This document shows positions 3,701 to 54,231 of a stretch of 64,000 nucleotides of DNA, one piece after another. Origin of the DNA: Candidatus Moraniibacteriota bacterium (lineage in GTDB: Bacteria; Patescibacteriota; Minisyncoccia; Moranbacterales; UBA1568); NCBI GenBank assembly GCA_052035095.1, contig JBPOHW010000008.1:3060-67059 (forward strand), read 5' to 3'. The notes beneath the pieces were generated by a model. It worked only from the letters and a program-made list of their open reading frames with translations, made no database searches and was not told the origin of the DNA. The position numbers and the translations under genes are program-made. Position 1 is the stretch's first letter; each line of letters starts with the position of its first letter.

Positions 3701-4532
3701 CCAAGTATCTATTCCAAGTGCGTTACTCCAACGATTGCTCCAAGAGCTTCTGATGATGGAAGATAAAAAGCTTCGTGCTGGAGTAATGGAAGAATTTCAT
3801 TTGGGGCACGTATTCAATCAGCTGTACGAAAAGAACGAACTATCAATTGAAGAAATGGCAAAATTAGAATGGCCATTTGCCGCACTCTTTGAGGAACTCA
3901 AGCAGTACACTTCTCATCCAATGGCACTTCATCGTGTTCTACAAAAAGATCCTCAATTTTTCTCCCAACTTATTACATTCATCTACAAACGAGATGATCA
4001 TGCGCCGGATTCTACTCGTGGCGATGTAGATGAGGAAACGGCGGAGCGACGCGCGCGCGTCGCTCATGAAGTCTTGAATTCTTGGTATCTCATACCCGGG
4101 TTAAAAGAGGACGGTACGCTTGATGAAAAAGAACTTACCGAATGGGTTGAGGCGGCACGCAAACAATGCACAGAAACCAATCATATAATAGGGTGCGATT
4201 TGCAGATTGGCTTCATGTTTGCTCATATACCGGGAGATCCCGACGGCACATGGCCACACGTTGGTGTTCGCAACCTTATAGAGCGCCTAAACAACGAAAC
4301 TATTGATCGGCATATTCAAAATGAGATTTATAATAGTCGCGGCGTTGTTTCAAAGAGCATCAATGACGGAGGTAAACAAGAGCGAGCACTTTCTGAAAAG
4401 TATAAAAAAATGAGCGAAGCCGTTAATTCAAAATGGCCACGTACCGCCGCCATGCTTCGCTCGATAGCTAAATCTTACGAACAACAAGCCAAGAGCGAGG
4501 ATATTGATTCAGATTTATATGATGTACGATAG
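744..4532 (+). CDS. large hypothetical protein, about 1262 aa, no recognisable catalytic motif, predicted mostly alpha-helical
   Basis: Uninterrupted 3.8 kb ORF. ATG at 744 is preceded by AAGAGGA. It follows the HTH gene and ends at a bidirectional terminator. No Walker, HxH, radical-SAM or other motif seen by eye. Confidence 0.7.
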   Translation: MKWINASDITNWANTNQRQCQDTLPELVRRLILAHTVNAVDKFDFPSGDSVATGGWDGRLKTPVVSPFFPSSHSGWEIGTEKSAQKKAEADYTKRSADPLGMVLNETTFVFVTPRSFPKRANWQSTKQSTNTWKDVKVIAADGLEQWLDNTPAVASWFARKISKVVSNGIRDIEAVWEEWSIGTKPVMTPALVIGGRTTDVEAIQKWIAEAPRILEVRGDHPDEAFAFLYASIAMLPETERAQTLARCLVVENIGELRELTQAFQNYPLIIAAPGECINAASLAVSKGHHVFISMNATVIGFRDILRLARPQRGAVENILHEGGLSEADAQRMARDSGRSIPVLRRHLFQSNAVSAPVWANAKSARILLPVLFANAWDEYKDGDRKVIETLSGMSHDDFVKALTPFLSVDDSPIRKVGSVWMIKSPLDAWFLLAPHLTQDSLKLFEQSLLGVLTKTDPKYELEADKRWAAAIYGKSNAYSEWLRSGFVESLVLLTVFGNRSPQVPSTQTFADHVVKQVFATADKWEAWASIKDATPLFSEAAPDTFMEAVEQGIAKTPTIFQELMKDSGSVFGECHHSGLLWALESIAWSQDYFARAVNVLVELANIDPGGKWSNRAINSIKNVFLPRFPQTYATPEQRLAALDSLIAKFPKKVWEFSQGYYSGGSFSESHRFRWRDAGGNRRGLEPEDNENNREYLNALLPKLIDLAVAKENLIASADEFTQLPDDIQERLLGVLEKTDPATFSKDERAKLLQCIREALNWTNSYGDEDRRKQVPALNRVLERFTPEDVIERVGWLLGNPWPRLPQGEPKQYDAKDTAVKTAQQEAAREVLDKASLDEIFKFAGTIQYQGILGHSLAKAVRDEKEDSTVLDGILSHITDMPILIRGYADGRVEVAGPGWIDTQIERMKTKGNYSPQACALLYFGIPEGASTWSAVSAHGKDVESTYWKQASGFSQTSKADDTPIAVEKLLDVKRPEAALQIAGDPQVSIPSALLQRLLQELLMMEDKKLRAGVMEEFHLGHVFNQLYEKNELSIEEMAKLEWPFAALFEELKQYTSHPMALHRVLQKDPQFFSQLITFIYKRDDHAPDSTRGDVDEETAERRARVAHEVLNSWYLIPGLKEDGTLDEKELTEWVEAARKQCTETNHIIGCDLQIGFMFAHIPGDPDGTWPHVGVRNLIERLNNETIDRHIQNEIYNSRGVVSKSINDGGKQERALSEKYKKMSEAVNSKWPRTAAMLRSIAKSYEQQAKSEDIDSDLYDVR

Positions 4533-12953: not shown

Positions 12954-14198
12954 TCATTTCTCTGCCACGGCATTTCCGGCAACCCAGCCCGTACTCCAGC
13001 AAAGTTGGAGGCTATAGCCGCCGGAAGGGCGATCGATATCGAGAACATCTCCCGCAAGATACAGATTCGGGAACAGTCTCGAACGCATTGTTTTGAAATC
13101 CACCTCTTCCGGTATAACGCCGCCACTGGTCGCAATCGCCTTGTCCTTACCAAGAAGACCGATTGCAGTCAGATGGAGATCTTTTACTGTGCGAGCCAAC
13201 ACAAGACGCGATGTTCGACTCACATTGCGTACCGGCATCTCGAAAGGAATGTTTGCAAGCGACAAAACTACGGGGATGAGAAGTGGCGGCAGGAATCCAT
13301 CCAAACTGTTTTTCACCTGCTTATTTTTTTGGCGTTCAAAAAGCTCTCGGATACGCGTATCGATTTCATCGAAAGTACTGCGCGGAAAAAGATCAAGCGA
13401 GAGCGTCACCTTGCCACGACGCAAACATTCGCCGACACATCGACTCATATTGAGCGCCAGAGGACCGCTTAATCCGAAGTGTGTAAAGAGAAGCGCTCCT
13501 TCCCGAGATTCCTTTTTCTCTCCGCTTAAAAAAACGGTCATCCTCACCTCTTCGAGACTCGCTCCCGAAATCGAGCGGATCCACGATTCGCCGACGCGTA
13601 TCGGAACCAACGCGACGCGAGATTCGGCAACCGTATGACCGATTGCCTTGAGGAAGCGAAACCCATCACCCGTTGATCCGGTTTCCGGACGTGACATCCC
13701 TCCAGTCGCGAGAACATAGGTCTGCGCCCGAAGCACCTCCTCACCCCCAAGCCGAACACCGGCAATCATCCCCTCCGCCATTTCAAATCCAGCCACCTCC
13801 GCGCCAAGCATCACGTGAACGTTTCCCACCCGCATATATTCAACCAGTACATCAAGGACGGACTGCGCTTGATCGCTTACGGGAAATACCCGTTTCTCCG
13901 CTTCAACCTTGGTCGGCATTCCACGAGTATGGAAAAACGCCAGTGTCTCCTCCACGCCAAATCGCGAAAACAGAGAAAAGAGAAACTTTGCCGCGCCTTT
14001 GAACTTCGCTGCAAAAATATTCCGATCAAATTCGGCATTCGTCACGTTACAGCGACCGCCACCCGTCAAAAGCAGCTTCGTCCCGAGAGACGCGTTTTTC
14101 TCAAGCAACACCACGCGCGCGCCACGCTCTGCCGCGCGCCCCGCCGCCATCATTCCCGCCGGTCCCCCGCCGATAATCACCACATCATATTCTTTCTC
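12954..14198 (-). CDS. NAD(P)/FAD-dependent oxidoreductase, HI0933/BaiN family
   Basis: DVVIIGGGPAGMMAA dinucleotide fold and the TGGGRCNVTN signature. Start trimmed to the MREKEYDVVIIGGG Met. Confidence 0.85.
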   Translation of the reverse strand, partial: EKEYDVVIIGGGPAGMMAAGRAAERGARVVLLEKNASLGTKLLLTGGGRCNVTNAEFDRNIFAAKFKGAAKFLFSLFSRFGVEETLAFFHTRGMPTKVEAEKRVFPVSDQAQSVLDVLVEYMRVGNVHVMLGAEVAGFEMAEGMIAGVRLGGEEVLRAQTYVLATGGMSRPETGSTGDGFRFLKAIGHTVAESRVALVPIRVGESWIRSISGASLEEVRMTVFLSGEKKESREGALLFTHFGLSGPLALNMSRCVGECLRRGKVTLSLDLFPRSTFDEIDTRIRELFERQKNKQVKNSLDGFLPPLLIPVVLSLANIPFEMPVRNVSRTSRLVLARTVKDLHLTAIGLLGKDKAIATSGGVIPEEVDFKTMRSRLFPNLYLAGDVLDIDRPSGGYSLQLCWSTGWVAGNAVAEK

Positions 14199-14275
14199 GC
14201 GCATAGAATACCGGCTACTCGCATCCGATCGTCTTCTGACTGACCACCGCTTGATCGATCGCTTGTTCGCAAAAA

Positions 14276-14349
14276 AAATTATACACCACGGTTCAGTATA
14301 CGCTATTTCCTTGTCAAACCGGTGTAAACTCACAAAAAAAATGAGGGGG
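14276..14349 (-). promoter_or_regulatory. conserved upstream block: CGGTTTGACA, 11 nt spacer, GTATACTGAACCGT, then GGTGTATAAT
   Basis: About 70 bp related to 16541-16640. Contains TATAAT/TATACT boxes roughly 70-100 bp upstream of the flavoprotein start. Confidence 0.45.
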
Positions 14350-14369
14350 GTTCCCTATCGCGGAATCTT

Positions 14370-14774
14370 TCAAATATTGAGATACGTTATGGTAAACTGA
14401 AGCGCCGTCGCAAATGATACCCAGAGAAGATACGGGATATTGGCATAGACAACCCAACGCAAATCGGGAGATGAATTCCACAGGGCGATAAACGCCCAAA
14501 GAAGCGTCCCGAAAACAAGAAGAATATCAAGAGCGGCGAGAACATTATTTTTGAGCCCGAATTGAATCGGCGAGAACGCAAAATTAAAAACGAGGTTGAG
14601 CGCAAACGGCAACGCGACCGCCCACGCGAGCCTGCCCATCAATGCCCGATACAACACCACACCGAAAGAAACCGCGATAATCGCGTAGAGCACCGTCCAT
14701 ACCGGACCGAAAATCCACGAAGGTGGCGCCCACACAGGCTTCACCAATTGCGAGTACCAGGTGTACGTGTTCAT
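14370..14774 (-). CDS. tspO: TspO/MBR tryptophan-rich sensory protein
   Basis: 134 aa, five TM helices; conserved WYxxLxKPxWxPP and Trp-rich pattern. Confidence 0.8.
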   Translation of the reverse strand: MNTYTWYSQLVKPVWAPPSWIFGPVWTVLYAIIAVSFGVVLYRALMGRLAWAVALPFALNLVFNFAFSPIQFGLKNNVLAALDILLVFGTLLWAFIALWNSSPDLRWVVYANIPYLLWVSFATALQFTITYLNI

Positions 14775-14807
14775 AGATTTTTTTCATTAAAGACTCTTTT
14801 CAGAGTA

Positions 14808-15539
14808 TCACATTCGCTTCATATGAAGAAAGTATCGACGTTTGTCCGGGGAAAACCGTTCAATCGCGTACCGGAGCATCGTACGCGGCATATACGCCGC
14901 GTGCCGATCAAGAAACAGGGTGAGCGCCGACACATCCCGCTTTCCGATTTCTCGAAGCATCCACCCGACCGCCTTATGGATGAGATCGTGCGTATCGCCG
15001 AGCAAAACCTCGGAAATCGCAAATGCATCCGAAAAATCTCCACTTCGTATCAGTCGAAACGTGCCCAGCATCGCCATCCGTCGCTCCCAGAGATTCTTCG
15101 ATCGCGCCCATTTATAGAGCATCGAGCGATCTTTTCGTCGCGAAAGAAAATCGCCGACGATATTTGGCGTCGTTACGTCTACCAAATCCCAATTGTTGAC
15201 TGCCGATCGATGCGCCACATAAAAGTCAAAGACCTTCTCCTTCACGCTATCGTCTTTGGTTGTTTCATACCGGAGAACGAGTATCAAAAGTCCAATCATC
15301 CGCTCTTCGTGCCACGGACTCTCAAGGAGTTTCTCGATATCGGAAAAATCGAGATCTCGATACATTTTGGCAAGCTTCCGTTCTTCTCCCATGGTGAGCC
15401 CTCGAAACCGATCCCCCTCGCCATACTCCCCCTTCCCGGTCTTAAAAAACCACGCATTCGATCGAGCGCGATCCTTCATCGAATACCGTTTCACATCACG
15501 CAAAAGTTCGGAATATTTCATAAGGTATTCCCGTATCAC
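14808..15539 (-). CDS. DNA alkylation repair protein (AlkD/AlkC-like HEAT-repeat glycosylase)
   Basis: 243 aa; FFKTGKGEYGEGDRFRGL, WHEERMIGLLIL and NNWDLVD match the AlkD family. Confidence 0.7.
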   Translation of the reverse strand: MIREYLMKYSELLRDVKRYSMKDRARSNAWFFKTGKGEYGEGDRFRGLTMGEERKLAKMYRDLDFSDIEKLLESPWHEERMIGLLILVLRYETTKDDSVKEKVFDFYVAHRSAVNNWDLVDVTTPNIVGDFLSRRKDRSMLYKWARSKNLWERRMAMLGTFRLIRSGDFSDAFAISEVLLGDTHDLIHKAVGWMLREIGKRDVSALTLFLDRHAAYMPRTMLRYAIERFSPDKRRYFLHMKRM

Positions 15540-15731
15540 TTACAGACAACAAGGCACGGATCGACTATCACAGAATACCTCAATTTCAAGAAAACAAAAA
15601 AAAGCAGAGACTGAAACAATACCTCAGCCTTTATTAATTCCACCACGCTACTTCTTATGTCCTCCTTTCAAGCGCGAGCAAAAACCCAAGAAGGAAAACC
15701 ATTCGCTCGCGATGCTAAATATGGAGAGAGA

Positions 15732-16520
15732 CTACTCACATCCAAGAGCCTCCTTGCAGGCCGCCTTTTGATCGCCCGCTTGCTCGCAGGCGGAGCATTG
15801 GAGAGCTTTCATATCCCCGCCGCCTGCCGGAAGCGAGCCGGCGCCCGAAGGAACCGTTCCCGGCACAGTGGTCGGCACCGGCAAAGCTTTCATCATTTCC
15901 GCCGGGTCGACAAAGGTCACATCCGACGGAACGACAAACATAGATTCATCCACCTTCCATGAATCGCAATCATACGAATACTTGTGATTGATATCTTTGG
16001 CGGGATCCTCCAAGCGAGCGGGCATTGCCTCTTCACCCGCCTCGTCGTCTTGAACCGCGGGAGATTCCGGCGCCTGATCCATCATCATCTTCATACCCCG
16101 TTTCGTCGTCTCATCCCAGACATACATCGTATTTTTCGCCGTATCAAACAGCATCTGCGATGTCATCGTCGCTCCGGCACTTCCCTCGGAAAGCATCGTA
16201 TTTGAAATCATCGCCCGTCCCCTGTTACCCGACACATAGAAGGTACCCTCCGACTTGGACACATCATTCTCATCAGAGAACACGCACTTTTGCGATTTTC
16301 CCATTCCGAGCAAATCCCGGAAAGACATCTCCGCGGCGCTCTCCGATTGTTCGTCCATTTCCTGACGAGCATCGTCCGATGTCATCCCTCGCATCTCCTC
16401 TTCCCCCGACCCGCGCATCAGAAAGATCACTCCCGCGACAACCAGCATGCCCACCGCCGCTATTGCCACGCCTATCGCCGTTTTGTTTGTCCCGGATTTG
16501 TTTTCCGGACTATTCGACAT
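15732..16520 (-). CDS. membrane-anchored secreted hypothetical protein
   Basis: N-terminal TM anchor, acidic Met-rich ectodomain, Cys-rich C-terminus. Start set to the Met with a GGAAG RBS. Confidence 0.45.
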   Translation of the reverse strand: MSNSPENKSGTNKTAIGVAIAAVGMLVVAGVIFLMRGSGEEEMRGMTSDDARQEMDEQSESAAEMSFRDLLGMGKSQKCVFSDENDVSKSEGTFYVSGNRGRAMISNTMLSEGSAGATMTSQMLFDTAKNTMYVWDETTKRGMKMMMDQAPESPAVQDDEAGEEAMPARLEDPAKDINHKYSYDCDSWKVDESMFVVPSDVTFVDPAEMMKALPVPTTVPGTVPSGAGSLPAGGGDMKALQCSACEQAGDQKAACKEALGCE

Positions 16521-16605
16521 TGTTTCTTCCATACCAAAAATAGAAAGATTACGCACTACGGTTCAGTATACACCATCCCCCTGCCAAACCGCCACAACCC
16601 CCCAC

Positions 16606-16629
16606 AAAAAAACCACCCTCTCTTGAGGG
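16606..16629 (-). terminator. rho-independent terminator (CCCTC-TCTT-GAGGG plus T7 on minus strand)
   Basis: Hairpin followed by seven T on the transcribed (minus) strand, downstream of the 16698-17309 gene. Confidence 0.55.
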
Positions 16630-16697
16630 CGGCTCATTCTGTATGGCGGGGATGCTGGGACGAAGTTAGAACGTATCTTCTTTGGACATCAGGCTAG

Positions 16698-17309
16698 CTA
16701 TTTAATCTTTGCCAATGTCTCTAAAACGCTTTTAATCTGCTGATCACTGACTTTTGCATCTTCCATAGCACTCAAGAGGCTACCGAGCTGTTGTTCATTA
16801 ATTTTGACGTTGTTCGAGGTATTTAGAATCTGCTCTAGTTGATTGTTATCAATCTTTACGTCGTTTCGAACTTCTATGTCCTGTGTAGTTAATACAGGAA
16901 TCAAAATAGCAAGAACCGAAATTGCTATTGCTATAAACGCTGAAATTTTTGCATCCTTAGCATTTTTCCGTGCAAGTCTCAGTTCCTGATAGTCAATAAA
17001 ATTAAAATGGGACTCCAGACTTATGACATATTTATTTCTCCCGTCGGCGTAGTTGTTGTAGTCGAGGATATAAAGAGCCAAAAAGAGTGTGTCTGGATTT
17101 ACTGGCCCAGCACCAGTAACACCGATGCTGTAATGGTTCTTATGAGCGATCTGTAAGTAGGTTTTAAGAACGTCTTTTTCTCTATCGCTCAAGGACAGTT
17201 CTGTGGCTTCTGTAACCTCTGAAACACTAAACCCTTGAGGATGATTTAGTCCCCATTTAATAGCTCTGATAAGAAAGCTTTCACCAATATTTTCTTCACT
17301 AGATGGCAT
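16698..17309 (-). CDS. hypothetical protein with C-terminal TM helix and coiled-coil tail
   Basis: 203 aa, AT-rich. Sits 9 bp downstream of the OLD-family nuclease gene, probably co-transcribed. Confidence 0.5.
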   Translation of the reverse strand: MPSSEENIGESFLIRAIKWGLNHPQGFSVSEVTEATELSLSDREKDVLKTYLQIAHKNHYSIGVTGAGPVNPDTLFLALYILDYNNYADGRNKYVISLESHFNFIDYQELRLARKNAKDAKISAFIAIAISVLAILIPVLTTQDIEVRNDVKIDNNQLEQILNTSNNVKINEQQLGSLLSAMEDAKVSDQQIKSVLETLAKIK

Positions 17310-17318
17310 AGTAGCAAC

Positions 17319-19151
17319 TTAAAATCTCTCCAATAACTTAGTGAAAAGTGTTCCTACATTGGTAGTTGTTGTGCTACTTAAGTTTATCTGACTACTATCC
17401 TTCTGGCATTCTTCCAGAAACTTCTTGGCAAGCAATACTTTATCTAGCTTACTTTTTTTGATATACGTGGAATTAGATTCAGCGTAAGACTTACTTTCGT
17501 CTTTGAGTACGAATTTCTTAAAGTCTTCTAGTGAAAAAACATCTTCTATACTTCCCTCAGATTCTAATACAGCCAAAATTAAATCCTTAGTTACTAACCA
17601 AGTATCTTTCAAATTTCTCTCCCCATCTCTTTTCCCCTGATCTTTATCGTATAGGTATAAAACTTTTGTACCCCAGCCATGCAGGATAGTTCCAACGAAA
17701 GGCATATTCCCAGCTCCGCCACCAAAGATAAAGTTTAACTTATTTTCATTCATCAGTTTTTTAAATGCGTTTAAGTAATAAAGATCTGATGGACCTTCGA
17801 CTACTACGTTATTAACTTTATCCAAGGAAGCAACACCGGAGTTTAATTCTAGACCTATAGCCGTCAGGATGGGGGTTAATGTTTCTTTGTCTGCTAAAGC
17901 ATGAACTTTATTTTCAATTTTTGTGCCAGACTTTTTTGTTCGATGGATTAGTCTAATCTGATTTAGTTTATCTGCTTCCAAAAGATAGGGTGAGTGTGTA
18001 GAGAATACTAACTGCACTTCCTCTGCCGAGGCCTCAAGTTTTCTTAAAATATCCTCCTGTGCTTTTGCGTGTAGAAATAATCCAGGCTCATCTATCAAGA
18101 TGATATTTGGAACATCCTCACTTGCACGTGCAGACACTTTAATATAAAAGGCTAGATGCCACTGCCGTCCCTTACTCCTCAAGCTTGGTTCATACAAATG
18201 CCCGTCTTCTTCAACCCAAAAGTAAACATCTTCTGAATCCCAATCTACGCTTAAGTTAGTAATGTCTTGAGTCCAGAATTTCTCGTAGTCTTTATTTATT
18301 TTGATGTTCAAATCCTTCTTGTGTTTTTGTTTATCACGGGCTTGAGAATTTTTGATTGTATCTACGTCTAGGTTGCTTATGACTGCTAAATCTTGAACCC
18401 ATTTGTTAGTTTCAAGCTCTGCAAACGGTATTTTATTTGGAAAAACATCTTCAAATGAATTAAAGAATACAAAATTTGGTATCCATTTTTTGAGAGCTTC
18501 TAAGAATTTGGTCTCTGAATTAATTAATTTTTCAGCACCATCCATATCTCCGCCGATCTCCGATAATAATTTCAAAAAAATACCACCATCTTTTTCATCT
18601 ATCTGCGCAACATTAGGTGAGGTAGCAGTTTGAAATGTGTTAAATAAGGCCTTACTATTTTCAAAATTAGAAAATTCAAAATCAAACAAAGTCCCTCCTA
18701 ATTGCGTATGCTTTACATGTAGTCCTTTTATTTTGTCCCACTTATTTATGATTGATTTCTCCAGTCTCTCCAAATCATTTTTTCCAAAAATATCATCCTC
18801 TAGAGTTTCTTTCCCGAACCTATAACTATCTGGAAAAGTCTTAATAACCTCGAGCTCGATATTTTTAGTAGCCTTCTTTGTACTAGCTATTTTTTCTAGT
18901 ATATTTTTGAGAATAGATGCCTCAACTACAAAAGTTACGGAAATTTCTGGTATTGCCTCAGGTGTTTTTATTGGAATAGCAGATTCTCTAATTTTCTTTT
19001 CCGTATCAAAATCTTCTAAAGCCTCGAGAATTGAGGTTTTACCTGATTCATTTTTTCCAGCAAGGATCGTAACTGTATCAGTTAGATAACAATCGCCACT
19101 GTCGGTTATGGATTTAAAATTCTTAATCCGAAATTTCTTAAGCTTTAGCAT
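17319..19151 (-). CDS. OLD-family / PARIS-like ABC-ATPase plus TOPRIM nuclease
   Basis: N-terminal ABC ATPase (Walker A AGKNESGKTS; ILIDEPGLFLH Walker B/D-loop). C-terminal TOPRIM (VVVEGPSDLYYL, FGGGAGN, LYLYDKD = DxD). 610 aa, AT-rich. Confidence 0.8.
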   Translation of the reverse strand: MLKLKKFRIKNFKSITDSGDCYLTDTVTILAGKNESGKTSILEALEDFDTEKKIRESAIPIKTPEAIPEISVTFVVEASILKNILEKIASTKKATKNIELEVIKTFPDSYRFGKETLEDDIFGKNDLERLEKSIINKWDKIKGLHVKHTQLGGTLFDFEFSNFENSKALFNTFQTATSPNVAQIDEKDGGIFLKLLSEIGGDMDGAEKLINSETKFLEALKKWIPNFVFFNSFEDVFPNKIPFAELETNKWVQDLAVISNLDVDTIKNSQARDKQKHKKDLNIKINKDYEKFWTQDITNLSVDWDSEDVYFWVEEDGHLYEPSLRSKGRQWHLAFYIKVSARASEDVPNIILIDEPGLFLHAKAQEDILRKLEASAEEVQLVFSTHSPYLLEADKLNQIRLIHRTKKSGTKIENKVHALADKETLTPILTAIGLELNSGVASLDKVNNVVVEGPSDLYYLNAFKKLMNENKLNFIFGGGAGNMPFVGTILHGWGTKVLYLYDKDQGKRDGERNLKDTWLVTKDLILAVLESEGSIEDVFSLEDFKKFVLKDESKSYAESNSTYIKKSKLDKVLLAKKFLEECQKDSSQINLSSTTTTNVGTLFTKLLERF

Positions 19152-19345
19152 ATCTATCCTTTATTAAACTCTTATTAGCATCCTGATCAGCTAGCTTCTT
19201 TGAAGAAAAAAATAAGTAAATCCAGCAAGGCTATCCAGCCACATTCCCATTTCTTCTTTACCTGCTTTGACCCCGCAGTTTTTCTCAAAGTATTCCTGGC
19301 CTCTCTTAATCAATCCCTCGGAAAACTTTTGAGCTGACATAAGGA

Positions 19346-19567
19346 TTACTTCAAAAAGTGTTCGACACTTTTACCGTACAGTTGGGCAAATTTCTTTACT
19401 TCCAAGATATCGAGACGATATTCACCGGATTCGACACGAGAAATGTAGGACTGCGGACGCTTCATTTTCTTGGCAACATCAACTTGCCTGAGTCCAGCCT
19501 CGTGCCTCGCTTTGATCATCCTTTCGATGAAAATGGCGTATTCTTTTGTGCGGATTGTTCTTCCCAT
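19346..19567 (-). CDS. XRE-family HTH transcriptional regulator
   Basis: 73 aa; QVDVAKKMKRPQSYISRVESGE is a canonical XRE/Cro helix-turn-helix. Confidence 0.75.
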   Translation of the reverse strand: MGRTIRTKEYAIFIERMIKARHEAGLRQVDVAKKMKRPQSYISRVESGEYRLDILEVKKFAQLYGKSVEHFLK

Positions 19568-19635
19568 ATACTACAAACGTATATACGGGAAATCAAGAAA
19601 AAGCAGTCTCTCGTGAGACTGCTCGTTCCGTCGTG

Positions 19636-19709
19636 CGGGGACGACCGGGCTCGAACCGGCGACCTTCTGCGTGACAGGCAGACGCTCTAACCAACTGAGC
19701 TACGCCCCC
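19636..19709 (-). tRNA. tRNA-Asp (GTC)
   Basis: Cloverleaf: GGGGGCG acceptor, GCTC-AGTTGGTTA-GAGC D arm, anticodon loop CTGTCAC, T loop TTCGAGC, discriminator G. Confidence 0.9.
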
Positions 19710-19740
19710 AAACATTCAATTTTTTCTCTCTGATTTTCCT

Positions 19741-19828
19741 TTGGTACCAGGGGCGAGATTCGAACTCTTGATCCGCCTCAGGCGGACTTATGCGTTCAAT
19801 ATCCCACCTTACCCCCGTACCATTTTTG
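19741..19828 (-). pseudogene. degenerate tRNA-like fragment (3' half shared with the disrupted tRNA at 19955-20058)
   Basis: Contains CATAAGTCCGCCTGAGGCGGATCAAGAGTTCGAATCTCG, 39/40 identical to the 3' half of the neighbouring tRNA-like copy. 5' half unrelated, T stem mismatched, ends form an 11-bp inverted repeat. Confidence 0.5.
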
Positions 19829-19902
19829 TAGCAGGGGCGAGATTCGAACTCGCGACCTACGGCTTATGAGTCCGTCGCTCTAACCAACTGAGCTACCCTG
19901 CC
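19829..19902 (-). tRNA. tRNA-Met (CAT), elongator-type or Ile2-type
   Basis: GGCAGGG acceptor, anticodon loop CTCATAA, T arm GCGAG-TTCGAAT-CTCGC, discriminator A. Confidence 0.85.
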
Positions 19903-19954
19903 GTAAAAATGGTACAGAATAAGTTTACATTACCCTGATAAAGCTGACTGGGGA

Positions 19955-20058
19955 AATACTCTCACCGAGATTCGAACTCTCGATCCGCCTCAGGCGGACT
20001 TATGAGTCCCGTGCTCCCTGCCTGCCGGCAGGCAGGTAACCAACTGAGCTACCCTGGC
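19955..20058 (-). pseudogene. tRNA-like gene (CAT anticodon loop) disrupted by a 20-bp perfect palindrome in the D-loop
   Basis: GCCAGGG-TA-GCTC-AGTTGGTTA-[CCTGCCTGCCGGCAGGCAGG]-GAGC, then CGGGA-CTCATAA-GTCCG. 3' acceptor strand cannot pair and the T stem is non-canonical. Confidence 0.55.
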
Positions 20059-20211
20059 AAAAAGTACCATATCGATTGGAAAGAAACAAGGGCGGGAAAA
20101 GAACCGCTCTCCCAAGAGCTTACCAGAAAGCCACAATTCTTTCAAGGGAACCTCGCCTTCAAAAGAAAGCGCCTCCTCAAAATCAAAGGAAGCGCGATAA
20201 CTCCGGAAAGG

Positions 20212-20532
20212 CTAGAGCGAAACATTCAAAACTTCCCGTTCAATACTCGGAATGAGGCTGAGAAATACTTCTCTAAAAGGCTCTCCTTCCCTCTCAGCCA
20301 AAGCAAAAATCGAATCAAGCTCTTCGGAAAGTTTCAGTTGCCGAGCCGCTTTCTCTCGTGGGAGTGAAATTGCACGGCGAATTGACACAAACCGCTTCGC
20401 CAAATCGACAAGCATTTCTCCTTGTTGGAGGGAAAGCCCATTGTTCTCAACCAGCGAAAAAACCATCGATCGCACCCTTTGATCGGACAGGACTCTCCCG
20501 TGAAGCACCCTATTCAAGCTTAACGCTGTCAT
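20212..20532 (-). CDS. hypothetical protein
   Basis: 106 aa ORF between the tRNA cluster and the HD gene; no motif. Competing + strand ORF at 20002-20367. Confidence 0.25.
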   Translation of the reverse strand: MTALSLNRVLHGRVLSDQRVRSMVFSLVENNGLSLQQGEMLVDLAKRFVSIRRAISLPREKAARQLKLSEELDSIFALAEREGEPFREVFLSLIPSIEREVLNVSL

Positions 20533-20585
20533 ACCAACCTCCTCTTGTAAACATTAAAGAACGAATTCCACCACCGTATTGATCG

Positions 20586-21998
20586 TCAAGACGCCTCCGC
20601 CATTTTCCTCAAAAGAGCAATATCATTTTTTATATCCGAAAGAATGTTTTTCACTTCGCTACGAACAAACTCCACAACCTCCCTTGCAAGGAGAACGTCG
20701 CCGCCGCTTTCCCTGACTCTTACTTGCCACTTTTCAAGGGCTTCCGGAAGTGAGAGATTCTCATCGTCCTCTATTTCCGATTCTTTGTCAATATCCACAG
20801 GACCGGTGTGCCCAAGTCCCTCTCTCGATATTTCATCTATCATACAAAGAGCCGCTACTTGGGAATTGAACGCCCGCGGCTCCCGCCGCACATCGCCCGC
20901 AATGATGGCAAGCGTCTTTTCAAGAGAATTTGCAAGTTTATACGATCGCGTCGACGAGGATATCGCCTCAAACTCATCGCAGAACCGTATAAGTGAAGGA
21001 GCAATGTTGGGTATGTCCGGATCGGCATGGTGGTGGTGTGCCGCAAGCATCACCTGAAATTCAGAATACCCGTACTTCTCAAGAATAGGTTGCGATTTCT
21101 CCTCGTGAGCATCGAGAATCTCCCGCAAAGTCATCTGTCCCGAAAAGCCGACGCGTTCCAAACGTCCTATCCGAATTTGAACCCACGAATCCTCTTCATT
21201 TTGAAGGCGAGTAGCTTGCTCCGCGTCGGTATCTCCCGCCATATCGGGATGCTGTTTCCGATACTCCAAGCGAAAGAGTGTCTCCGCAGGCATAAACATA
21301 TTCACCCGTTTTCCGGAAAAGGTGGAGCGAACTGTTTCTTCGGAAACTTCAGGAGAAAGCGGCTCTTCCAAAGAAGCAGTTGCTCGATCATGTGCCCTTC
21401 CCGCTTTCGAAAGAATTTCCCGGGCAAAATCCCGTTCATTTTTTTTCTCGCTCTCGCAACACCGGACAAGATACGCTTCACTCTCGGAATCGCGTACGGA
21501 ATTTTCTATGACATCGGCGGTGATATTAAGTTTCCCAATATCATGCACAACGGCAACTCGAAGAATCTCCTTCATAACCTCATCCTCACCCTTTCCGGAT
21601 TCCCGCCCAAGCGGGGCGGCTATCGACTCAAGTGTCCGCCCTCCCGCCGAAAAAATTCGTTCAAATTTTTCGAGCGCCAACCGAAACGTACGCAATGAAT
21701 GAGAGAAGAGAATCTTTCGATCATCATCATACAGCCATATATAGTCGAGGAGCTTCCAGTCTTTTTGCTCGAGAACGCCTTCAAGGGCGAGAACGTACTT
21801 TTCCGGAAGAATATCTTGCTCTCGAATATACCGCTTCATATGCTCGATAAACTCCGGATGCTCACTTACCGCTCTTTCCACCGCGGGAAGATCTCCCTCC
21901 GCCGCAATCGCATGAGTCTTCCGTTCCGCATCCTCCAATAAACCTGAAGCTTCTCCCTTTCCATCACGCGCTTTGAAAGACAGCTTCTCGACCGCCAT
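20586..21998 (-). CDS. HD-domain phosphohydrolase
   Basis: VVHDIGK and AAHHHHADPD motifs typical of the HD/HD-GYP superfamily. Start trimmed to MAVEKLS, which has a GGAGG RBS. Confidence 0.7.
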   Translation of the reverse strand: MAVEKLSFKARDGKGEASGLLEDAERKTHAIAAEGDLPAVERAVSEHPEFIEHMKRYIREQDILPEKYVLALEGVLEQKDWKLLDYIWLYDDDRKILFSHSLRTFRLALEKFERIFSAGGRTLESIAAPLGRESGKGEDEVMKEILRVAVVHDIGKLNITADVIENSVRDSESEAYLVRCCESEKKNERDFAREILSKAGRAHDRATASLEEPLSPEVSEETVRSTFSGKRVNMFMPAETLFRLEYRKQHPDMAGDTDAEQATRLQNEEDSWVQIRIGRLERVGFSGQMTLREILDAHEEKSQPILEKYGYSEFQVMLAAHHHHADPDIPNIAPSLIRFCDEFEAISSSTRSYKLANSLEKTLAIIAGDVRREPRAFNSQVAALCMIDEISREGLGHTGPVDIDKESEIEDDENLSLPEALEKWQVRVRESGGDVLLAREVVEFVRSEVKNILSDIKNDIALLRKMAEAS

Positions 21999-22146
21999 GT
22001 CCGATCCGCCTCCGCCGGTTCTCGCGCCGCCGGTTTCCTCCAAATTCGGCTGTTCCCAAAAACGAAACATACTCGTAACAAAAAAGCGATACACCCCCAG
22101 TGTACCGCCCTTCTTCTTTCCATTCAAGGCACGTCGCTCGCTTGCC

Positions 22147-22206
22147 ACGTCGTTGCACGAACGACGGTGGCGAGCGACGTCGTTGCACGAACGACGGTGG
22201 CGAGCG
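22147..22206. repeat. perfect 30-bp tandem duplication (ACGTCGTTGCACGAACGACGGTGGCGAGCG x2), each with an internal hairpin
   Basis: Direct tandem copies at 22147-22176 and 22177-22206. GTCGTT-GCACG-AACGAC hairpin in each copy. Flanking ACGTCGCTCGC pairs with GCGAGCGACGT. Confidence 0.85.
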
Positions 22207-22244
22207 ACGTGCCAAGGCATCAGCACCGGAAAAATTCCGCAACG

Positions 22245-24065
22245 CTATTTATCCTCCCCCTCATCCAAAAAGCTCCCCGTCTGCCGATTCCACAAGCTCG
22301 CGTAGAGTCCGTTCTTCGCGAGGAGTTCGTCGTGCTTCCCTTCTTCTTCAATCTTTCCATCGCGATTCATGACAACGATGCGGTCGAGCTTCCGGATCGT
22401 GCTCAAACGATGCGCGATGACAACCGCCGTCTTGCCGCTCATCAAATCGTCAAGCGCTTCCTGTATCGCGTGTTCGCTCTCCGAATCGAGCGAACTCGTC
22501 GCCTCATCGAGCACCAAAATTTCCGCATCCTTCAAAATGGCGCGAGCAATGGCAATGCGTTGACGTTCGCCGCCCGAGAGTTTCACCCCGCGCTCGCCAA
22601 CCAAAGTGTCGTACCCCTTGGGAAGGCGCGTGATAAAATCGTGCGCTTCGGCTTTCTTCGCCGCCGTGACAATGTCTTCATCCGACGCTTCCGGTTTGCC
22701 ATAGGCGATATTCTCGCGAATCGAACGATGAAAGAGAAGTGGCTCCTGCGGCACATAGGCGATATGCGAGCGGAGCTCATCCTGGCGAATACTTCGAATA
22801 TCCTGCCCGTCAATCGTGATCGCCCCCGTCTGCGGATCCGCGAATCGCAAGAGGAGTTTCGTCACCGTCGTCTTCCCCGCGCCCGATGGCCCCACGAGTC
22901 CCACCTTCTCTCCGTCTCGAATCGCGAGTGAAAAGTTTTGAAACACATCCTCGCCGTCCGAATACTTGAACGACACGTCGCGAAACTCAATCCGCCCATC
23001 CTTTATCCGATCCGCCTCCGGCTCTTCGGGATCGAGAATATCAATCGGTGTCTCGAAAACCTCAATCATTTCGGAAGCTGCTGCGGATGTTCGAAGGATC
23101 TGCGATGCCGATCGCGTGAGTTGCCACATGATGCCGAAAATATTCAGAAGATATGTCTGCACCAAAACCACGGTCCCCGCGGTAATTTCACCGCGAAGCC
23201 AAAGCCACACCGAAAGAGATAAGCCGGAAAACTGTAACAGGATTGCCAATCCATTCTGTACGGCACTCATAAGAATAAACGCCTTCCATGCCTCGCTTCG
23301 CGCTCGCTCTTGAGTGTTCGCGTATTCCCGAAATGAAGATTTTTCTCGACTATGAGCCGAGAAAACCTTCACGGTGAGAATATTTGTGAGCACATCCGAC
23401 AACCGACCGGTTATCTTGGAATCCTCGGCGGATTCAATATCATTGAATCTCCATCGCCGTTTCAAAAGCGGAATACTCGCCAACACAACCACAATCATGC
23501 TTCCCAAAAAAAGAAAAGCGAGAAGTGGCGAAAAGAAAAAAATGCCAAAAAAAGTTCCAAAAAGTATAAGACCATTCATCCACAAAGAAAAAGTTATCGT
23601 GTCCTGTAAATCCGAAAGTCCGTGCACGAATCGACCGGACTGCGATACCAAACTTCCGGAAAATCGATTTGCAAAAAATGCATACGAATGTTTCTGAAGT
23701 CTTTCAAATGTAAAGCATGCAAGATCGCGTTGCGCGCGACTCTGCGCAAAAAAATACAAAAAATCTCCGACACGAAAGACAACGTACTGAAAAAGAAACA
23801 ATCCTCCAAGTACGGAAATCCAAAACCATACTTCTTCGCGACCAGTCAGTGAATCGCCGGAAATGATATCCACGATATTTTTGTACACGATCGGCGGCAA
23901 GATATCGACACACACAATCCCTATCCCATAACACAGAAGTCCGCCCAAAAACCGCCATCGGTATTTCCCGACGACCTTCCAGTACCACGACACGATCTTC
24001 CGGATCGGCATCAACTTTTTTGCCTCCGGTTTTTCTTGCTCATTCATAAATGCATACACTACCAC
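22245..24065 (-). CDS. ABC exporter, fused permease and ATPase (MsbA/multidrug type)
   Basis: Six TM helices followed by an NBD: Walker A GPSGAGKTT, signature LSGGERQRIAIARA, Walker B ILVLDEATS. Confidence 0.85.
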   Translation of the reverse strand: MVVYAFMNEQEKPEAKKLMPIRKIVSWYWKVVGKYRWRFLGGLLCYGIGIVCVDILPPIVYKNIVDIISGDSLTGREEVWFWISVLGGLFLFQYVVFRVGDFLYFFAQSRAQRDLACFTFERLQKHSYAFFANRFSGSLVSQSGRFVHGLSDLQDTITFSLWMNGLILFGTFFGIFFFSPLLAFLFLGSMIVVVLASIPLLKRRWRFNDIESAEDSKITGRLSDVLTNILTVKVFSAHSREKSSFREYANTQERARSEAWKAFILMSAVQNGLAILLQFSGLSLSVWLWLRGEITAGTVVLVQTYLLNIFGIMWQLTRSASQILRTSAAASEMIEVFETPIDILDPEEPEADRIKDGRIEFRDVSFKYSDGEDVFQNFSLAIRDGEKVGLVGPSGAGKTTVTKLLLRFADPQTGAITIDGQDIRSIRQDELRSHIAYVPQEPLLFHRSIRENIAYGKPEASDEDIVTAAKKAEAHDFITRLPKGYDTLVGERGVKLSGGERQRIAIARAILKDAEILVLDEATSSLDSESEHAIQEALDDLMSGKTAVVIAHRLSTIRKLDRIVVMNRDGKIEEEGKHDELLAKNGLYASLWNRQTGSFLDEGEDK

Positions 24066-24211
24066 AGACGAAACATCCCCATCAGAAGACGGGGATATTC
24101 CAAAAACAGATTTTCATGTGTTGCGGGGGCAGGATTTGCCCCGTCATTCGACGGGGCATCCCGTCGAATGACGGGATGAACCTTCCGTAAACCAAGATCT
24201 TCTTCCCAATG

Positions 24212-24285
24212 TTGCGGGGGTGGGATTTGAACCCACGGCCTCCTGGTTATGAGCCAGGCGAGCTGCCAGACTGCTCCACCCCGCG
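24212..24285 (-). tRNA. initiator tRNA-fMet (CAT)
   Basis: CGCGGGGTGGAGCAG 5' end identical to E. coli tRNA-fMet; C1-A72 mismatch pattern; anticodon loop CTCATAA; T loop TTCAAAT. Confidence 0.9.
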
Positions 24286-24537
24286 ATAAAGAATGCTTCG
24301 AAATCCATTTCCTCCCTTGAGACTTTTCAAGTATATTTCTCTCCTTCTTGCGTCGGAGTAATTCTCATAATCCTCTCGATAAACCAACTTCCAATTCTTT
24401 CCGCCCTTTGTCCATCGAGACTTCCCTGCGTTGTGGAAAGAAATCCTCTTTTCTACATCGGCGGAAATACCGATATAAAAACGACCAGCACTTGATTGTA
24501 TCACATACACACTAAAAGGAAGACTCGTGTCAAACAT
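24247..24537 (-). CDS. GIY-YIG nuclease-domain protein (YhbQ-like)
   Basis: VYVIQS..GRFYIGIS.D..KR...HN.G pattern. Its last 39 nt overlap the tRNA-fMet gene on the same strand. Confidence 0.65.
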   Translation of the reverse strand: MFDTSLPFSVYVIQSSAGRFYIGISADVEKRISFHNAGKSRWTKGGKNWKLVYREDYENYSDARRREIYLKSLKGGNGFRSILYRGVEQSGSSPGS

Positions 24538-24576
24538 ACATCACAATGACCTCATAAGCCAGTCCCACCGGGGCGG

Positions 24577-24600
24577 GACAGACTACTCCACCCCGCGATA
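24577..24600 (-). pseudogene. duplicated 5' fragment of tRNA-fMet (about 24 bp, 1 mismatch)
   Basis: GACTACTCCACCCCGCGATA versus the tRNA 5' region GACTGCTCCACCCCGCGATA at 24267-24290. Confidence 0.5.
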
Positions 24601-24671
24601 TTTTAGCTGCTCCTTTCCACAGCGGTATGTGTCTTTCAACAGTACAAGTATTCCACTCTCACGTCAACCAG

Positions 24672-24745
24672 TGGGTGATCGAGGACTCGAACCTCGGACC
24701 TCGACATTATCAGTGTCGCGCTCTAACCACCTGAGCTAATCACCC
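24672..24745 (-). tRNA. tRNA-Ile (GAT)
   Basis: GGGTGAT acceptor perfectly paired with ATCACCC; anticodon loop CTGATAA; T loop TTCGAGT; discriminator A. Confidence 0.9.
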
Positions 24746-24889
24746 AAAGAAAACCCATCGAAACATTCCGGTTCCTCAAGAAGAATCCTATCAAAAAGAC
24801 TCAAAAAGAGCAAGACGCTTGCCAACAAAGAGAAAATATGCCAGGCTCTTCGTAGCAAGTCCTTTTCCAACCAACAAGAGGAAGTAAGA

Positions 24890-26353
24890 ATGAACAAGAA
24901 AGTACCCTCTTCCCTAACTCCAGTGGAAGACTCTTCAGTCAGGATACATGTGCTTGATACCAGCGTACTTATGAGTAGCCCCTCAGCGCTCTTTAGCTTT
25001 CAAGAACATGATATCTGCCTCCCCATGCAAGTATTGAGTGAAATCGATAAAGGAAAAAAGGGGCACTTCGAAGCGGCGAGAAATGCAAGAGAGTCCGCCA
25101 GAAATATCGAGAGCGTCAGCGCTGAACCGGGAGCAGATATTACAGTAGGGGTATCTCTTTCGAGATTAAGCCAAGGAGCCGCCACCGGAGAACTCTTCAT
25201 TTGCAACGATTTGGTTGAGCGTTTTATACCAAAAACTCTCCCGAAAGAAAATGGAGACAATCAAATCATTGGAACCGTTCTATTTCTCAAAAAGAAATTC
25301 CCGGGCCGAACCATCATATTGGTTTCCAATGACATAAATATGCGGAGTAAGGCGAGGGCATGTCACATTAAGGCGGAAGAATACGCTACGGATAGAGTTA
25401 TCAAGGACACCTCCCTTTTGTACTCCGGTACTCGAAGGCTCGATGAATCATTTTGGTCGGAAAACGAAATTAGCGAGACCATGAAAAGCGGAGGAAAACG
25501 ATTCTACACAGTGAAGGGTCCCTTTGCTGAATCGGTTGTCTTAGGGGAATACGTCTATTACGAAGGTGACGCACCCCTCTACGCAGTTGTCACGGAAATT
25601 TCCAGAGGAGTGACACACCTCGCTACAATCAGGGACTATTCCCTATCGAAGAATTCCGTGTCCGGAATCACGGCAAACAACCGCGAACAAAATTTCGCCC
25701 TCAATGCCCTCATGGATCCGGATATTGACTTCGTTTCTCTGATGGGCGATGCCGGAACCGGAAAAACACTCCTCGCACTCGCGGCTGGCCTTGCCCAAAC
25801 CATGGAACCGAGCCAGCGGAAATACAACAAAATCATCATGACTCGGGCAACCGTACCGATCGGAGGTGAGGACATAGGATATCTTCCGGGAACCGAAGTA
25901 GAAAAAATGACACCATGGATGGGCGCCCTCATGGACAACTTGGAAGTAGTTATGCCTAATCAGTTCGGAGGAAACGGTAACGGAAATGGGAGGCTGACAG
26001 AATTTGGGCGAGGCGCAACGCAGGATATACTTGAGAAGTATATCAGCATACGTCACATGGGCTTTATGAGGGGAAGAACTTTCCAAGAAAAGTTTCTCAT
26101 CATAGATGAGGCTCAAAATCTCACCGTTGACCAAGCGAGAACAATGATCACAAGGGCAGGGAACGGAACCAAGGTTGTTTTCCTTGGAAATATTGCCCAA
26201 ATCGACACTCCGTACGTCATTGGCGCAACCTCCGGAATCACCTTTGTTGCCGAACGCATGAAGAACTGGGATCACGCTCGCCACGTCATTCTCCCGAAGG
26301 GTGAACGTTCGCGACTCGCAAACTATGCAAATCAGGTCCTTCAAACAGTTTGA
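24890..26353 (+). CDS. PIN-domain plus PhoH-like ATPase (YlaK/PhoH2-type predicted ribonuclease)
   Basis: N-terminal PIN (VLDTSVLMSSP); C-terminal PhoH with Walker A GDAGTGKT and Walker B FLIIDEAQN. Confidence 0.85.
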   Translation: MNKKVPSSLTPVEDSSVRIHVLDTSVLMSSPSALFSFQEHDICLPMQVLSEIDKGKKGHFEAARNARESARNIESVSAEPGADITVGVSLSRLSQGAATGELFICNDLVERFIPKTLPKENGDNQIIGTVLFLKKKFPGRTIILVSNDINMRSKARACHIKAEEYATDRVIKDTSLLYSGTRRLDESFWSENEISETMKSGGKRFYTVKGPFAESVVLGEYVYYEGDAPLYAVVTEISRGVTHLATIRDYSLSKNSVSGITANNREQNFALNALMDPDIDFVSLMGDAGTGKTLLALAAGLAQTMEPSQRKYNKIIMTRATVPIGGEDIGYLPGTEVEKMTPWMGALMDNLEVVMPNQFGGNGNGNGRLTEFGRGATQDILEKYISIRHMGFMRGRTFQEKFLIIDEAQNLTVDQARTMITRAGNGTKVVFLGNIAQIDTPYVIGATSGITFVAERMKNWDHARHVILPKGERSRLANYANQVLQTV

Positions 26354-54181: not shown

Positions 54182-54231
54182 GCTGTCAGCTATCCTGCCT
54201 ACCGGCAGGCAGACGGCATTCAGCTGTCAGC
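54182..54231. mobile_element. miniature palindromic insert (CCTGCCTACCGGCAGGCAG) flanked by 9-bp direct repeats GCTGTCAGC
   Basis: 32 bp between perfect 9-bp direct repeats at 54182-54190 and 54223-54231. The palindrome is 18/20 identical to the one inside the tRNA D-loop at 20017-20036. Confidence 0.5.

Follow-up and report, generated by a model that had tools for sequence, protein, structure and literature searches.

An intact tRNA-Met gene between two fragments of a resident tRNA-Met: a probable relic of a GIY-YIG homing-type cassette in Candidatus Moraniibacteriota

Why should an intact tRNA-Met gene stand between two broken tRNA-like pieces, one of which carries a perfect 20-bp palindrome in its D-loop? 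The question is raised by a transfer RNA (tRNA) array in a 64-kb stretch of Candidatus Moraniibacteriota DNA (contig JBPOHW010000008.1; this whole stretch is referred to as the window). By comparison with relatives, the two pieces are overlapping 5′ and 3′ fragments of a single resident gene, an elongator-type tRNA-Met, and the intact gene between them is a different tRNA-Met allele. We consider it probable (about 0.7) that the locus is the relic of a free-standing GIY-YIG homing-type cassette, of a kind that would replace tRNA genes, and that the relic has lost the open reading frame (ORF) of the cassette. This view draws on how the locus is built, on the empty site found in a relative, on reconstitution of the resident gene in silico, on the recurrence of the layout with and without the ORF and on the conservation of nuclease motifs in that ORF.

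Two pieces of one resident tRNA-Met gene

Inside the interval ARAGORN and Rfam call just two genes, a tRNA-Asp and a tRNA-Met. Around the latter lies a direct repeat of 39 nt, CATAAGTCCGCCTGAGGCGGATC[A/G]AGAGTTCGAATCTCG, with exactly two copies in the 64 kb (19754–19792 and 19966–20004), no third copy in the window and zero matches in shuffled sequence; repeat-finding extends it to 42 nt at 95% identity. The tRNA-like pieces that contain the two copies, here called psi-5′ and psi-3′, have no Rfam tRNA match at either the gathering score or a permissive E<=10. All features of the tRNA locus are on the minus strand and are listed in the direction of transcription:

19966–20058, minus: psi-5′ piece, resident tRNA-Met positions 1 to ~64
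20017–20036, no strand: PAL, the perfect 20-bp palindrome CCTGCCTGCCGGCAGGCAGG (inverted-repeat search)
19984–19998, no strand: GC-rich hairpin TCCGCC-TGA-GGCGGA in the variable loop of psi-5′ (perfect-hairpin listing)
19903–19965, minus: spacer, presumed former site of a nuclease ORF (ends compared with sister strain L005)
19828–19902, minus: intact tRNA-Met (CAT), GGCAGGG...CCCTGCT, taken as the replacement copy (ARAGORN; Rfam, 70.7 bits)
19793–19827, minus: helix 3′ arm AAAAATGGTAC, then a decayed inverted T-arm/acceptor copy GGGGGTAAGGTGGGATATTGAAC (inverted repeat and folds)
19742–19792, minus: psi-3′ piece, resident tRNA-Met positions 34–76 plus CCA
19772–19786, no strand: second TCCGCC-TGA-GGCGGA hairpin, variable loop of psi-3′ (perfect-hairpin listing)
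19635–19709, minus: tRNA-Asp (GTC), intact (ARAGORN, Rfam)

The parent gene of the pieces is found on the contig of a relative, L002, where the 546-aa protein that adjoins the array has a 70%-identical counterpart and neighbour proteins are 54–70% identical. The neighbourhood there consists of a 106-aa gene, a single intact tRNA-Met and a tRNA-Asp with its terminator hairpin; the tRNA-Met, GCCAGGG...CCCTGGTA (in full GCCAGGGTAGCTCAGTTGGTTAGAGCACGGGACTCATAAGCCCGGGGTCGAGAGTTCGAATCTCTCCCCTGGTA), sits 18 nt before tRNA-Asp. An empty site thus exists, and the arrangement is a presence/absence polymorphism among relatives at a syntenic position. In every relative the gene next downstream of the resident tRNA-Met is tRNA-Asp, which does not belong to the cassette. 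Searching with a profile of the 106-aa neighbour returned no relatives in one scan each of the metagenome and genome collections.

Aligned to the L002 allele, the upstream piece corresponds to positions 1 to ~64 with PAL added in the D-loop and 8 nt added in the variable loop, and the downstream piece to positions 34–76 with the identical 8-nt insert; it is this insertion, absent from L002, that gives rise to the variable-loop hairpin. The psi-5′ piece contains the acceptor 5′ strand GCCAGGG, the D arm, a CAT anticodon arm and the T loop, is cut off inside the T-stem 3′ strand, and has PAL set cleanly between GGTTA and GAGC of its D arm and D-loop. The psi-3′ piece runs from CATAA... through its variable-loop hairpin and a degraded T stem to the acceptor 3′ strand CCCTGGT, an A and CCA, and this CCCTGGT-A-CCA end is complementary to the GCCAGGG start of psi-5′. 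When psi-5′ (up to the repeat) and psi-3′ (from the repeat) are joined in silico and PAL is deleted, ARAGORN calls tRNA-Met(CAT). Neither piece by itself is called, not even after removal of PAL and the variable-loop insert, and neither yields a scorable cloverleaf (Rfam RF00005 or ARAGORN).

The original prediction for this DNA, made from sequence alone, had described the direct repeat around tRNA-Met with its two further tRNA-like pieces, both regarded as non-functional debris, and the D-loop palindrome of the upstream piece. These observations stand: the repeat has exactly two copies, the palindrome lies at 20017–20036, and the ARAGORN check it had proposed scores neither extra piece as a canonical tRNA. 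Its parentage does not, since it took the pieces for two decayed copies of another tRNA, and alignment to the tRNA genes of relatives instead returns tRNA-Met itself, intact in L002 and rejoinable in silico from the two fragments. Nor is the 5′ half of the downstream piece unrelated, as had been supposed. This piece folds back on its own inverted copy (−42 kcal/mol, z = −6.1), because its 5′ part repeats the piece's own T-arm and acceptor 3′ end in inverted, decayed form. Two further features had been overlooked: the complementarity of the outer acceptor ends, and a leader/trailer helix of 11–13 bp, GTACCATTTTT/AAAAATGGTAC, that encloses the intact tRNA-Met and has the last 13 nt of the spacer as its 5′ arm.

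Compared with the resident allele, the inner tRNA has compensatory changes in three stems (acceptor, anticodon and T). These changes are many, and it is therefore a different allele rather than a recent duplicate.

What the spacer may once have held is suggested by the sister strain L005, whose 106-aa neighbour protein is 96% identical and which has the psi-5′, intact tRNA-Met and psi-3′ parts at its tRNA-Met locus. Its spacer is longer and matches both ends of the window spacer (GTGAGAGTATTTC... and ...TGTAAACTTATTCTGTACC). It opens ATG GAT TTT GTT GCA TAC GTG... and encodes MDFVAYVLENFEGRRYTGSSSNMESRLA (MDFVAYVLENFEGRRYTG...), a stump of 31 codons for which the sole Pfam match at E<=1 is the GIY-YIG N-terminus (E = 0.016, profile positions 4–27). 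At 16 bits this match lies below the curated cut-off of 22.6 bits and is only suggestive; the stump may be what is left of a GIY-YIG gene.

The layout with and without a GIY-YIG reading frame

Four kilobases away, at tRNA-fMet, the window holds a paralogous cassette in which the ORF is present (Pfam and tRNA calls):

24119–24597, minus: the fMet cassette as a whole
24550–24597, minus: psi-5′ copy of tRNA-fMet, with palindrome TCCCGCCCCGGTGGGA at 24563–24578
24247–24537, minus: 96-aa GIY-YIG ORF (Pfam GIY-YIG, E = 7.8e-14)
24211–24285, minus: intact tRNA-fMet
24119–24182, minus: psi-3′ remnant of tRNA-fMet, with two hairpins in its T-loop (GGTTCA/AATCC)

The 96-aa ORF, which matches no NCBIfam family, terminates at the TAA that the intact tRNA-fMet has in its anticodon loop. 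A homologue 68% identical to its protein occurs in Candidatus Moraniibacteriota CP064975.1 (L006), where the fMet locus carries the window-type ORF. The same locus in L005 has a different GIY-YIG ORF, next to a dead copy with PAL, two positions changed, in the anticodon loop (CCTGCCTGCCGGTAGGCGGG), and in L002 a dead copy and an intact tRNA are present and the ORF is lost. Relatives thus carry ORF type 1, ORF type 2 or none, which amounts to turnover of the ORF; such gain, replacement and loss is a pattern typical of homing-endonuclease genes.

Beyond these relatives we find a recurrent layout, in which a 5′ tRNA copy, disabled and with PAL in one of its loops, is followed by an ORF for a GIY-YIG protein of about 80 aa or by nothing, then by an intact tRNA and sometimes by a 3′ remnant. 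L006 has tRNA-Ala, tRNA-Ile, the fMet cassette and a nested Met arrangement with the identical PAL at the identical D-loop position (20 of 20 positions, against 19 of 20 in L005), and L022 is another nested Met version. A dead 5′ copy with PAL in its loop, a GIY-YIG ORF and an intact tRNA follow one another at loci for tRNA-Lys (L044), tRNA-Gly (L113) and tRNA-Leu (L125), and ORF-less versions are found in L090, L037, L008 and L011.

The exact GGTTA-PAL-GAGC junction was then used to select metagenome loci and was found in 91 stretches representing 82 distinct loci. At 62 of the 82 an intact same-strand tRNA follows; six have no intact tRNA within 900 nt, and at 14 the contig is too short to judge. 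Twelve of the 62 tRNA-bearing loci have a GIY-YIG ORF between the PAL copy and the tRNA, and the other 50 have no ORF and a median gap of 57 nt. The twelve ORFs are 77–86 aa long and begin 17–39 nt from PAL (scripted start calls, one of them mis-called), and in 8/12 the tRNA's 5′ end contains the stop. The tRNAs are Val, Ile, Asp, Met, Asn, His and Ala species, with ten tRNA species in all at the junction loci. The dead copies end mostly at tRNA positions 29–43 and sometimes in the T arm, and a psi-3′ remnant follows the intact tRNA, as it does in the window, at 15/56 loci. When 19 cassette ORFs are aligned, the Y..Y, YxG, R, H and REKYWKSG motifs are conserved.

Some loci depart from this order. 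L007 (2410–3210; JGI 3300044839) has it reversed, with an intact tRNA-fMet first and after it a GIY-YIG ORF that stops at a TAA within the anticodon loop of a 3′-half dead copy carrying the hairpin TCCCGCGACTGCGGGA; there, an adjoining tRNA-Asn is followed by a possible ORF remnant, recognised by eye, and by a 3′-half dead copy. L167 (94–427; Ga0074195_1001821) has two D-loop-PAL junctions 305 nt apart, and its GIY-YIG ORF reads through the second dead copy with PAL translated as YLPAGRQGA, which looks like cassettes in tandem. In L219/L238, L228, L253, L214, L210 and L209/L246 PAL occupies the D-loop of a full-length tRNA gene, and the next 900 nt downstream contain no intact copy. Such genes often have additional small GC-rich hairpins in a D, anticodon or T loop. 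Either they are wholly dead and hairpins have colonised them, or their tRNAs tolerate the inserts or remove them.

The palindrome PAL

Exact copies of PAL occur in at least 120 GTDB species genomes from more than 8 phyla, for a chance expectation that we estimate at about 0.5 occurrences in 596 Gb. Judged by record titles the hosts include Patescibacteria, Bacteroidota, Omnitrophota, Planctomycetota, Gamma- and "delta"-proteobacteria, Bdellovibrionales, relatives of Thermodesulfovibrio and Chloroflexi. Cultured Bacteroidota are among them (Winogradskyella echinorum KCTC 22026, Flagellimonas yonaguniensis and Longitalea luteola). PAL is also present in 35 viral-contig stretches, with up to 6 copies in one 29-kb contig. 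Cultured phages and plasmids gave no match to a 37-nt query of D arm plus PAL, a result to which the low-complexity filter may have contributed, and our literature search found no paper containing the exact PAL string.

At tRNAs PAL is a clean 20-bp insertion in a loop of the dead copy without target duplication, usually in the D-loop and sometimes in the anticodon loop or at a stem edge. Among the matches listed, 17 of 121 copies lie within 400 nt of a tRNA gene; copies away from tRNAs are mostly intergenic. Compared with controls, PAL is found more often between local inverted repeats with a stem of at least 6 bp (12% vs 4%) and between local direct repeats (18% vs 5%). Three accounts of what places it were tried and set aside. 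As a transposon making 7-bp target duplications it should show exact 7-nt flanking repeats, which are present in 4/121 copies, and flanking repeats are just ~3-fold enriched; clustering of the ORFs within 3 kb gave no family in more than 6 loci, and thus no sign that PAL is tied to one transposase or nuclease gene; and coincidence of the PAL site with the stop codon of the ORF holds at some loci (D-loop TAG, anticodon-loop TAA) and fails in L044, L113 and L125.

Candidate roles for PAL are that it breaks homology between the dead and the live copy so that the ORF is not looped out, that it forms a 5′ hairpin on the ORF transcript, or that it serves as an operator or a target for the nuclease. 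Co-conversion with a cassette would explain the identity of PAL across phyla in tRNA contexts and would not explain the free-standing copies. PAL could be ultra-small mobile DNA in its own right, or a mark left by an undescribed process of insertion or repair to which structure-specific GIY-YIG nucleases are linked; it is possibly a new phenomenon.

Several observations on PAL and similar hairpins stand apart from the cassettes. Allowing up to 2 mismatches, the window holds two PAL copies. The second, CCTGCCTACCGGCAGGCAGA (2 mismatches; 54194–54213), is just upstream of the start of ychF (53121–54170, minus), with a copy of GCTGTCAGC on either side; its neighbouring CAGCTAT/CAGCATT-like heptamers are similar to ones that adjoin PAL in L052, a Planctomycetaceae contig. 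GC-rich viral contigs from IMG/VR (L128, 10596–11273; L157, 4880–5557; L148/L155/L156) have PAL between genes, in spacers where GTGAGAG/GTTAGAG heptamers and their complements form arrays on either side of it, and two of these contigs share a PAL pair 658 nt apart around one small ORF. Other small GC-rich hairpins also fill loops of dead copies, namely TCCGCC-TGA-GGCGGA in both window pieces and TCCCGCCCGGGCGGGA in L006. The window further contains a 22-bp perfect GC-rich palindrome, GAGCGACGCGCGCGCGTCGCTC, at 4044–4065, and its GC-rich perfect hairpins (stem of at least 7) number 11 vs 3.0 in composition-matched shuffles.

Proposed mechanism, rival explanations and known systems

The mobile cassette that we propose would consist of a very small GIY-YIG gene (~80 aa, the catalytic domain only) together with a complete tRNA gene, and would have invaded the resident elongator-type tRNA-Met. 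By analogy with free-standing GIY-YIG homing endonucleases, the nuclease would break a cassette-free tRNA gene, and double-strand-break repair would then copy the ORF and the attached tRNA allele from the donor, co-converting PAL (homing). The 5′ part of the resident gene would stay upstream as a dead, PAL-bearing copy, here up to position ~64 in the T-arm, the region cut by the phage endonuclease SegB; the 3′ part would sometimes be left downstream. The incoming intact tRNA would take over function, and its allele would presumably resist cleavage; the resident and incoming alleles do differ in their stems. Deletion of the nuclease ORF at some later time would correspond to the usual end of a homing cycle of invasion, decay and loss. 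Left in the window are psi-5′ with PAL, the spacer, the intact tRNA-Met, the foldback and psi-3′, and the foldback and the 31-nt overlap of the pieces may be scars of repair.

Several observations weigh against this account. The window has no nuclease ORF at its tRNA-Met locus, and the stump in L005 is a weak Pfam match below the cut-off. Simple insertion does not account for the presence of positions 34–64 and the 8-nt variable-loop insert in both pieces, nor for the leader/trailer helix around the inner tRNA in three lineages. The overlap suggests two successive events or repair synthesis, the inverted 3′-end copy after the inner tRNA may have arisen by foldback priming at a break, and the helix may insulate folding of the live tRNA or be a mere trace of the inverted duplication. 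The cassette ORFs are 77–96 aa long, the Pfam GIY-YIG domain spans nearly their full length and they have no DNA-binding domain, so that site-specific homing by proteins of ~80 aa alone is conjectural. About 100 of the 121 PAL copies among the matches listed are near neither tRNAs nor GIY-YIG genes, and PAL may therefore be an independent element. The idea that PAL simply marks a destroyed nuclease target was also rejected, because live, intact tRNAs keep the D-loop sequence of the insertion site uninterrupted. Finally, the metagenome loci were selected by their PAL junction, and thus say nothing on the share of cassettes without PAL.

Might the locus instead have arisen simply because unequal recombination duplicated tRNA-Met in tandem, the outer copies then decaying and PAL settling in by chance, with no nuclease cassette involved here? 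Tandem duplicates of tRNA genes are common, the inner tRNA and psi-3′ are 93% alike over 28 nt at their 3′ ends, and PAL is also found away from tRNAs and GIY-YIG genes. However, the many compensatory changes of the inner tRNA do not fit a recent duplicate, the outer pieces are complementary halves rather than whole copies, and an ORF stump stands between the pieces in L005, with the intact-ORF layout widespread elsewhere. We regard such a duplication as improbable.

It is a little harder still to believe that the outer pieces form a functional composite RNA by folding around the inner tRNA, to be processed by RNase P/Z or RNase III into a split tRNA or other structured RNA, with PAL comparable to an intervening sequence of the ribosomal RNA (rRNA) type. 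Such an RNA would explain why a different genus retains the arrangement, with PAL and positions 1–26 identical, why the inner-tRNA helix is kept with different sequences in the window and L005, in L006 and in L022, and why psi-3′ encodes a CCA, unlike the other tRNAs of the locus; the 338-nt region also folds with its outer acceptor strands paired (z = −4.7). It does not sit well with a broken T stem in psi-3′ (AAGAG/CTCGC), an outer copy without a CAT anticodon in L006, or an ORF stump as the L005 spacer. Most homologous loci, moreover, have no 3′ piece and have dead copies that end variably, mostly at 29–43, and in L006 the arms of the helix repeat the 3′ end of the outer tRNA itself, as an inverted duplication predicts.

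The original prediction had read the locus as attachment-site (att) debris. On this view an integrase-borne island would have entered the 3′ half of a tRNA gene by recombination, and most of the island would later have been lost, leaving attL and attR. The direct repeat does begin in the anticodon loop, which a 2002 account by Williams reportedly gives as a classic crossover sublocation for tRNA-targeting integrases; a variable region with defence genes lies nearby, beyond tRNA-Asp, and L006 has extra tRNA-Asp 3′-end copies downstream of tRNA-Asp. This origin is nevertheless not supported. By Pfam none of the 10 neighbouring ORFs (12954–26353) has an integrase, recombinase or transposase domain; the repeats enclose just ~170 nt, the tRNA included, and no island DNA; and no tRNA is restored, because the upstream repeat ends within the T stem, short of the tRNA 3′ end. 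The search once proposed for a matching island end returns, within the 64 kb, just the two known copies of the 40-nt segment, and dozens of loci show the same layout with a GIY-YIG ORF in the place of an island. We therefore think att debris very improbable. A bulge-helix-bulge or group I intron in the outer tRNA was rejected, since Rfam finds no intron, L006 has no anticodon there and the flanks form a continuous helix.

The region past tRNA-Asp, which had been linked to the array as an adjacent island, is a separate matter. Directly beyond tRNA-Asp (16698–19567, minus) are an XRE-type helix-turn-helix (HTH) gene (19346–19567, minus), a 610-aa OLD-family ATPase/TOPRIM nuclease (17319–19151, minus; PADLOC Old, E = 8e-29) and a 203-aa ORF without matches. 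Because the DNA there differs in relatives, from within the tRNA 3′ end in L005 and after the shared terminator hairpin in L002, we take it to be a separate variable region, probably for defence. An exact look-up of the HTH protein gave just a contig that ends at tRNA-Asp. Two extra tRNA-Asp 3′-end copies (GTCCCGCCGTCCCCGCCA-like) in L006 (3560–3900), ~90 and 330 nt downstream of tRNA-Asp, are att-like or repeated-invasion debris at a different tRNA from that of the main locus.

If the cassette reading is right, the locus itself is an ordinary relic, and its cassette type appears to be a new form of the free-standing GIY-YIG homing element. The larger proposition, that minimal GIY-YIG genes with replacement tRNAs and PAL-tagged dead copies are new, widespread selfish elements of cells and that the cross-phylum PAL tag is itself new, is put forward tentatively, at somewhat less than even odds. 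Were the cassette reading to hold, tRNA genes in many uncultured and some cultured bacteria would be routinely overwritten by tiny nuclease/tRNA cassettes, with whole tRNA alleles replaced horizontally, and relics resembling tRNA pseudogenes or att sites could mislead annotation that looks for islands. How a GIY-YIG domain of 80 aa finds its target would then be a question for enzymology. The exact cross-phylum PAL provides a ready search handle for such loci and raises the question of what inserts or preserves it, and the PAL-bearing cultured Bacteroidota make experiments possible.

Our literature search found no description of such cassettes in cellular genomes, the nearest systems being SegB and insertions in rRNA genes of the Candidate Phyla Radiation (CPR). 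Among more distant parallels, group I intron homing endonucleases target tRNA anticodon loops, an example being I-Ssp6803I in cyanobacterial tRNA-fMet. Like these, the cassettes have a nuclease gene at the anticodon region of tRNA-fMet/Met, where several remnants begin or end and ORF stops use the TAA; unlike them, they have no intron in Rfam, and function is kept by a whole second tRNA gene and not by splicing. With islands and prophages at tRNA 3′ ends the locus shares direct repeats that comprise the 3′ part of a tRNA and begin, at one end, in the anticodon loop; it differs in that no integrase was found, no island lies between the repeats and a separate full tRNA is supplied. PAL itself resembles repetitive extragenic palindromes (REPs) and miniature inverted-repeat transposable elements (MITEs) in being short, GC-rich, present in several copies per genome or contig, mostly intergenic and sometimes placed in the loops of other hairpins. 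It differs from lineage-specific REPs in being identical across more than 8 phyla and viral contigs at a length of only 20 bp, and neither a recurrent neighbouring transposase nor a regular target duplication was seen beside it.

SegB of phages T4 and T6 is a free-standing GIY-YIG homing endonuclease in the phage tRNA gene cluster (PMC2330249; PMC13096335). It recognises a 27-bp site that contains an 11-bp T-arm motif (PMC2330249), cuts inside tRNA genes at RAWTSGAAC, carries tRNA genes along and drives the duplication of tRNA segments (PMC2330249, PMC13096335). The cassettes share with it a GIY-YIG gene that adjoins tRNA genes, and both dead 5′ copies in the window end in the T arm. Unlike phage SegB, the putative nucleases of the cassettes are proteins of ~80 aa with chromosomal genes (in Patescibacteria, Bacteroidota and others). 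Their ORFs often run into the 5′ end of the tRNA gene and are accompanied by a truncated, PAL-bearing copy of the same tRNA. The rRNA genes of CPR bacteria contain non-intron insertions at the tops or bases of stem-loops, some of which encode GIY-YIG or 23S-IVS proteins, in a study that mentions neither tRNA nor palindromes (PMC11270868). The broad lineages, the small GIY-YIG ORFs and the location in loops of structured-RNA genes are the same as here (PMC11270868). The interrupted rRNA genes are presumed to be functional, whereas here the interrupted tRNA is dead and a replacement gene is provided.

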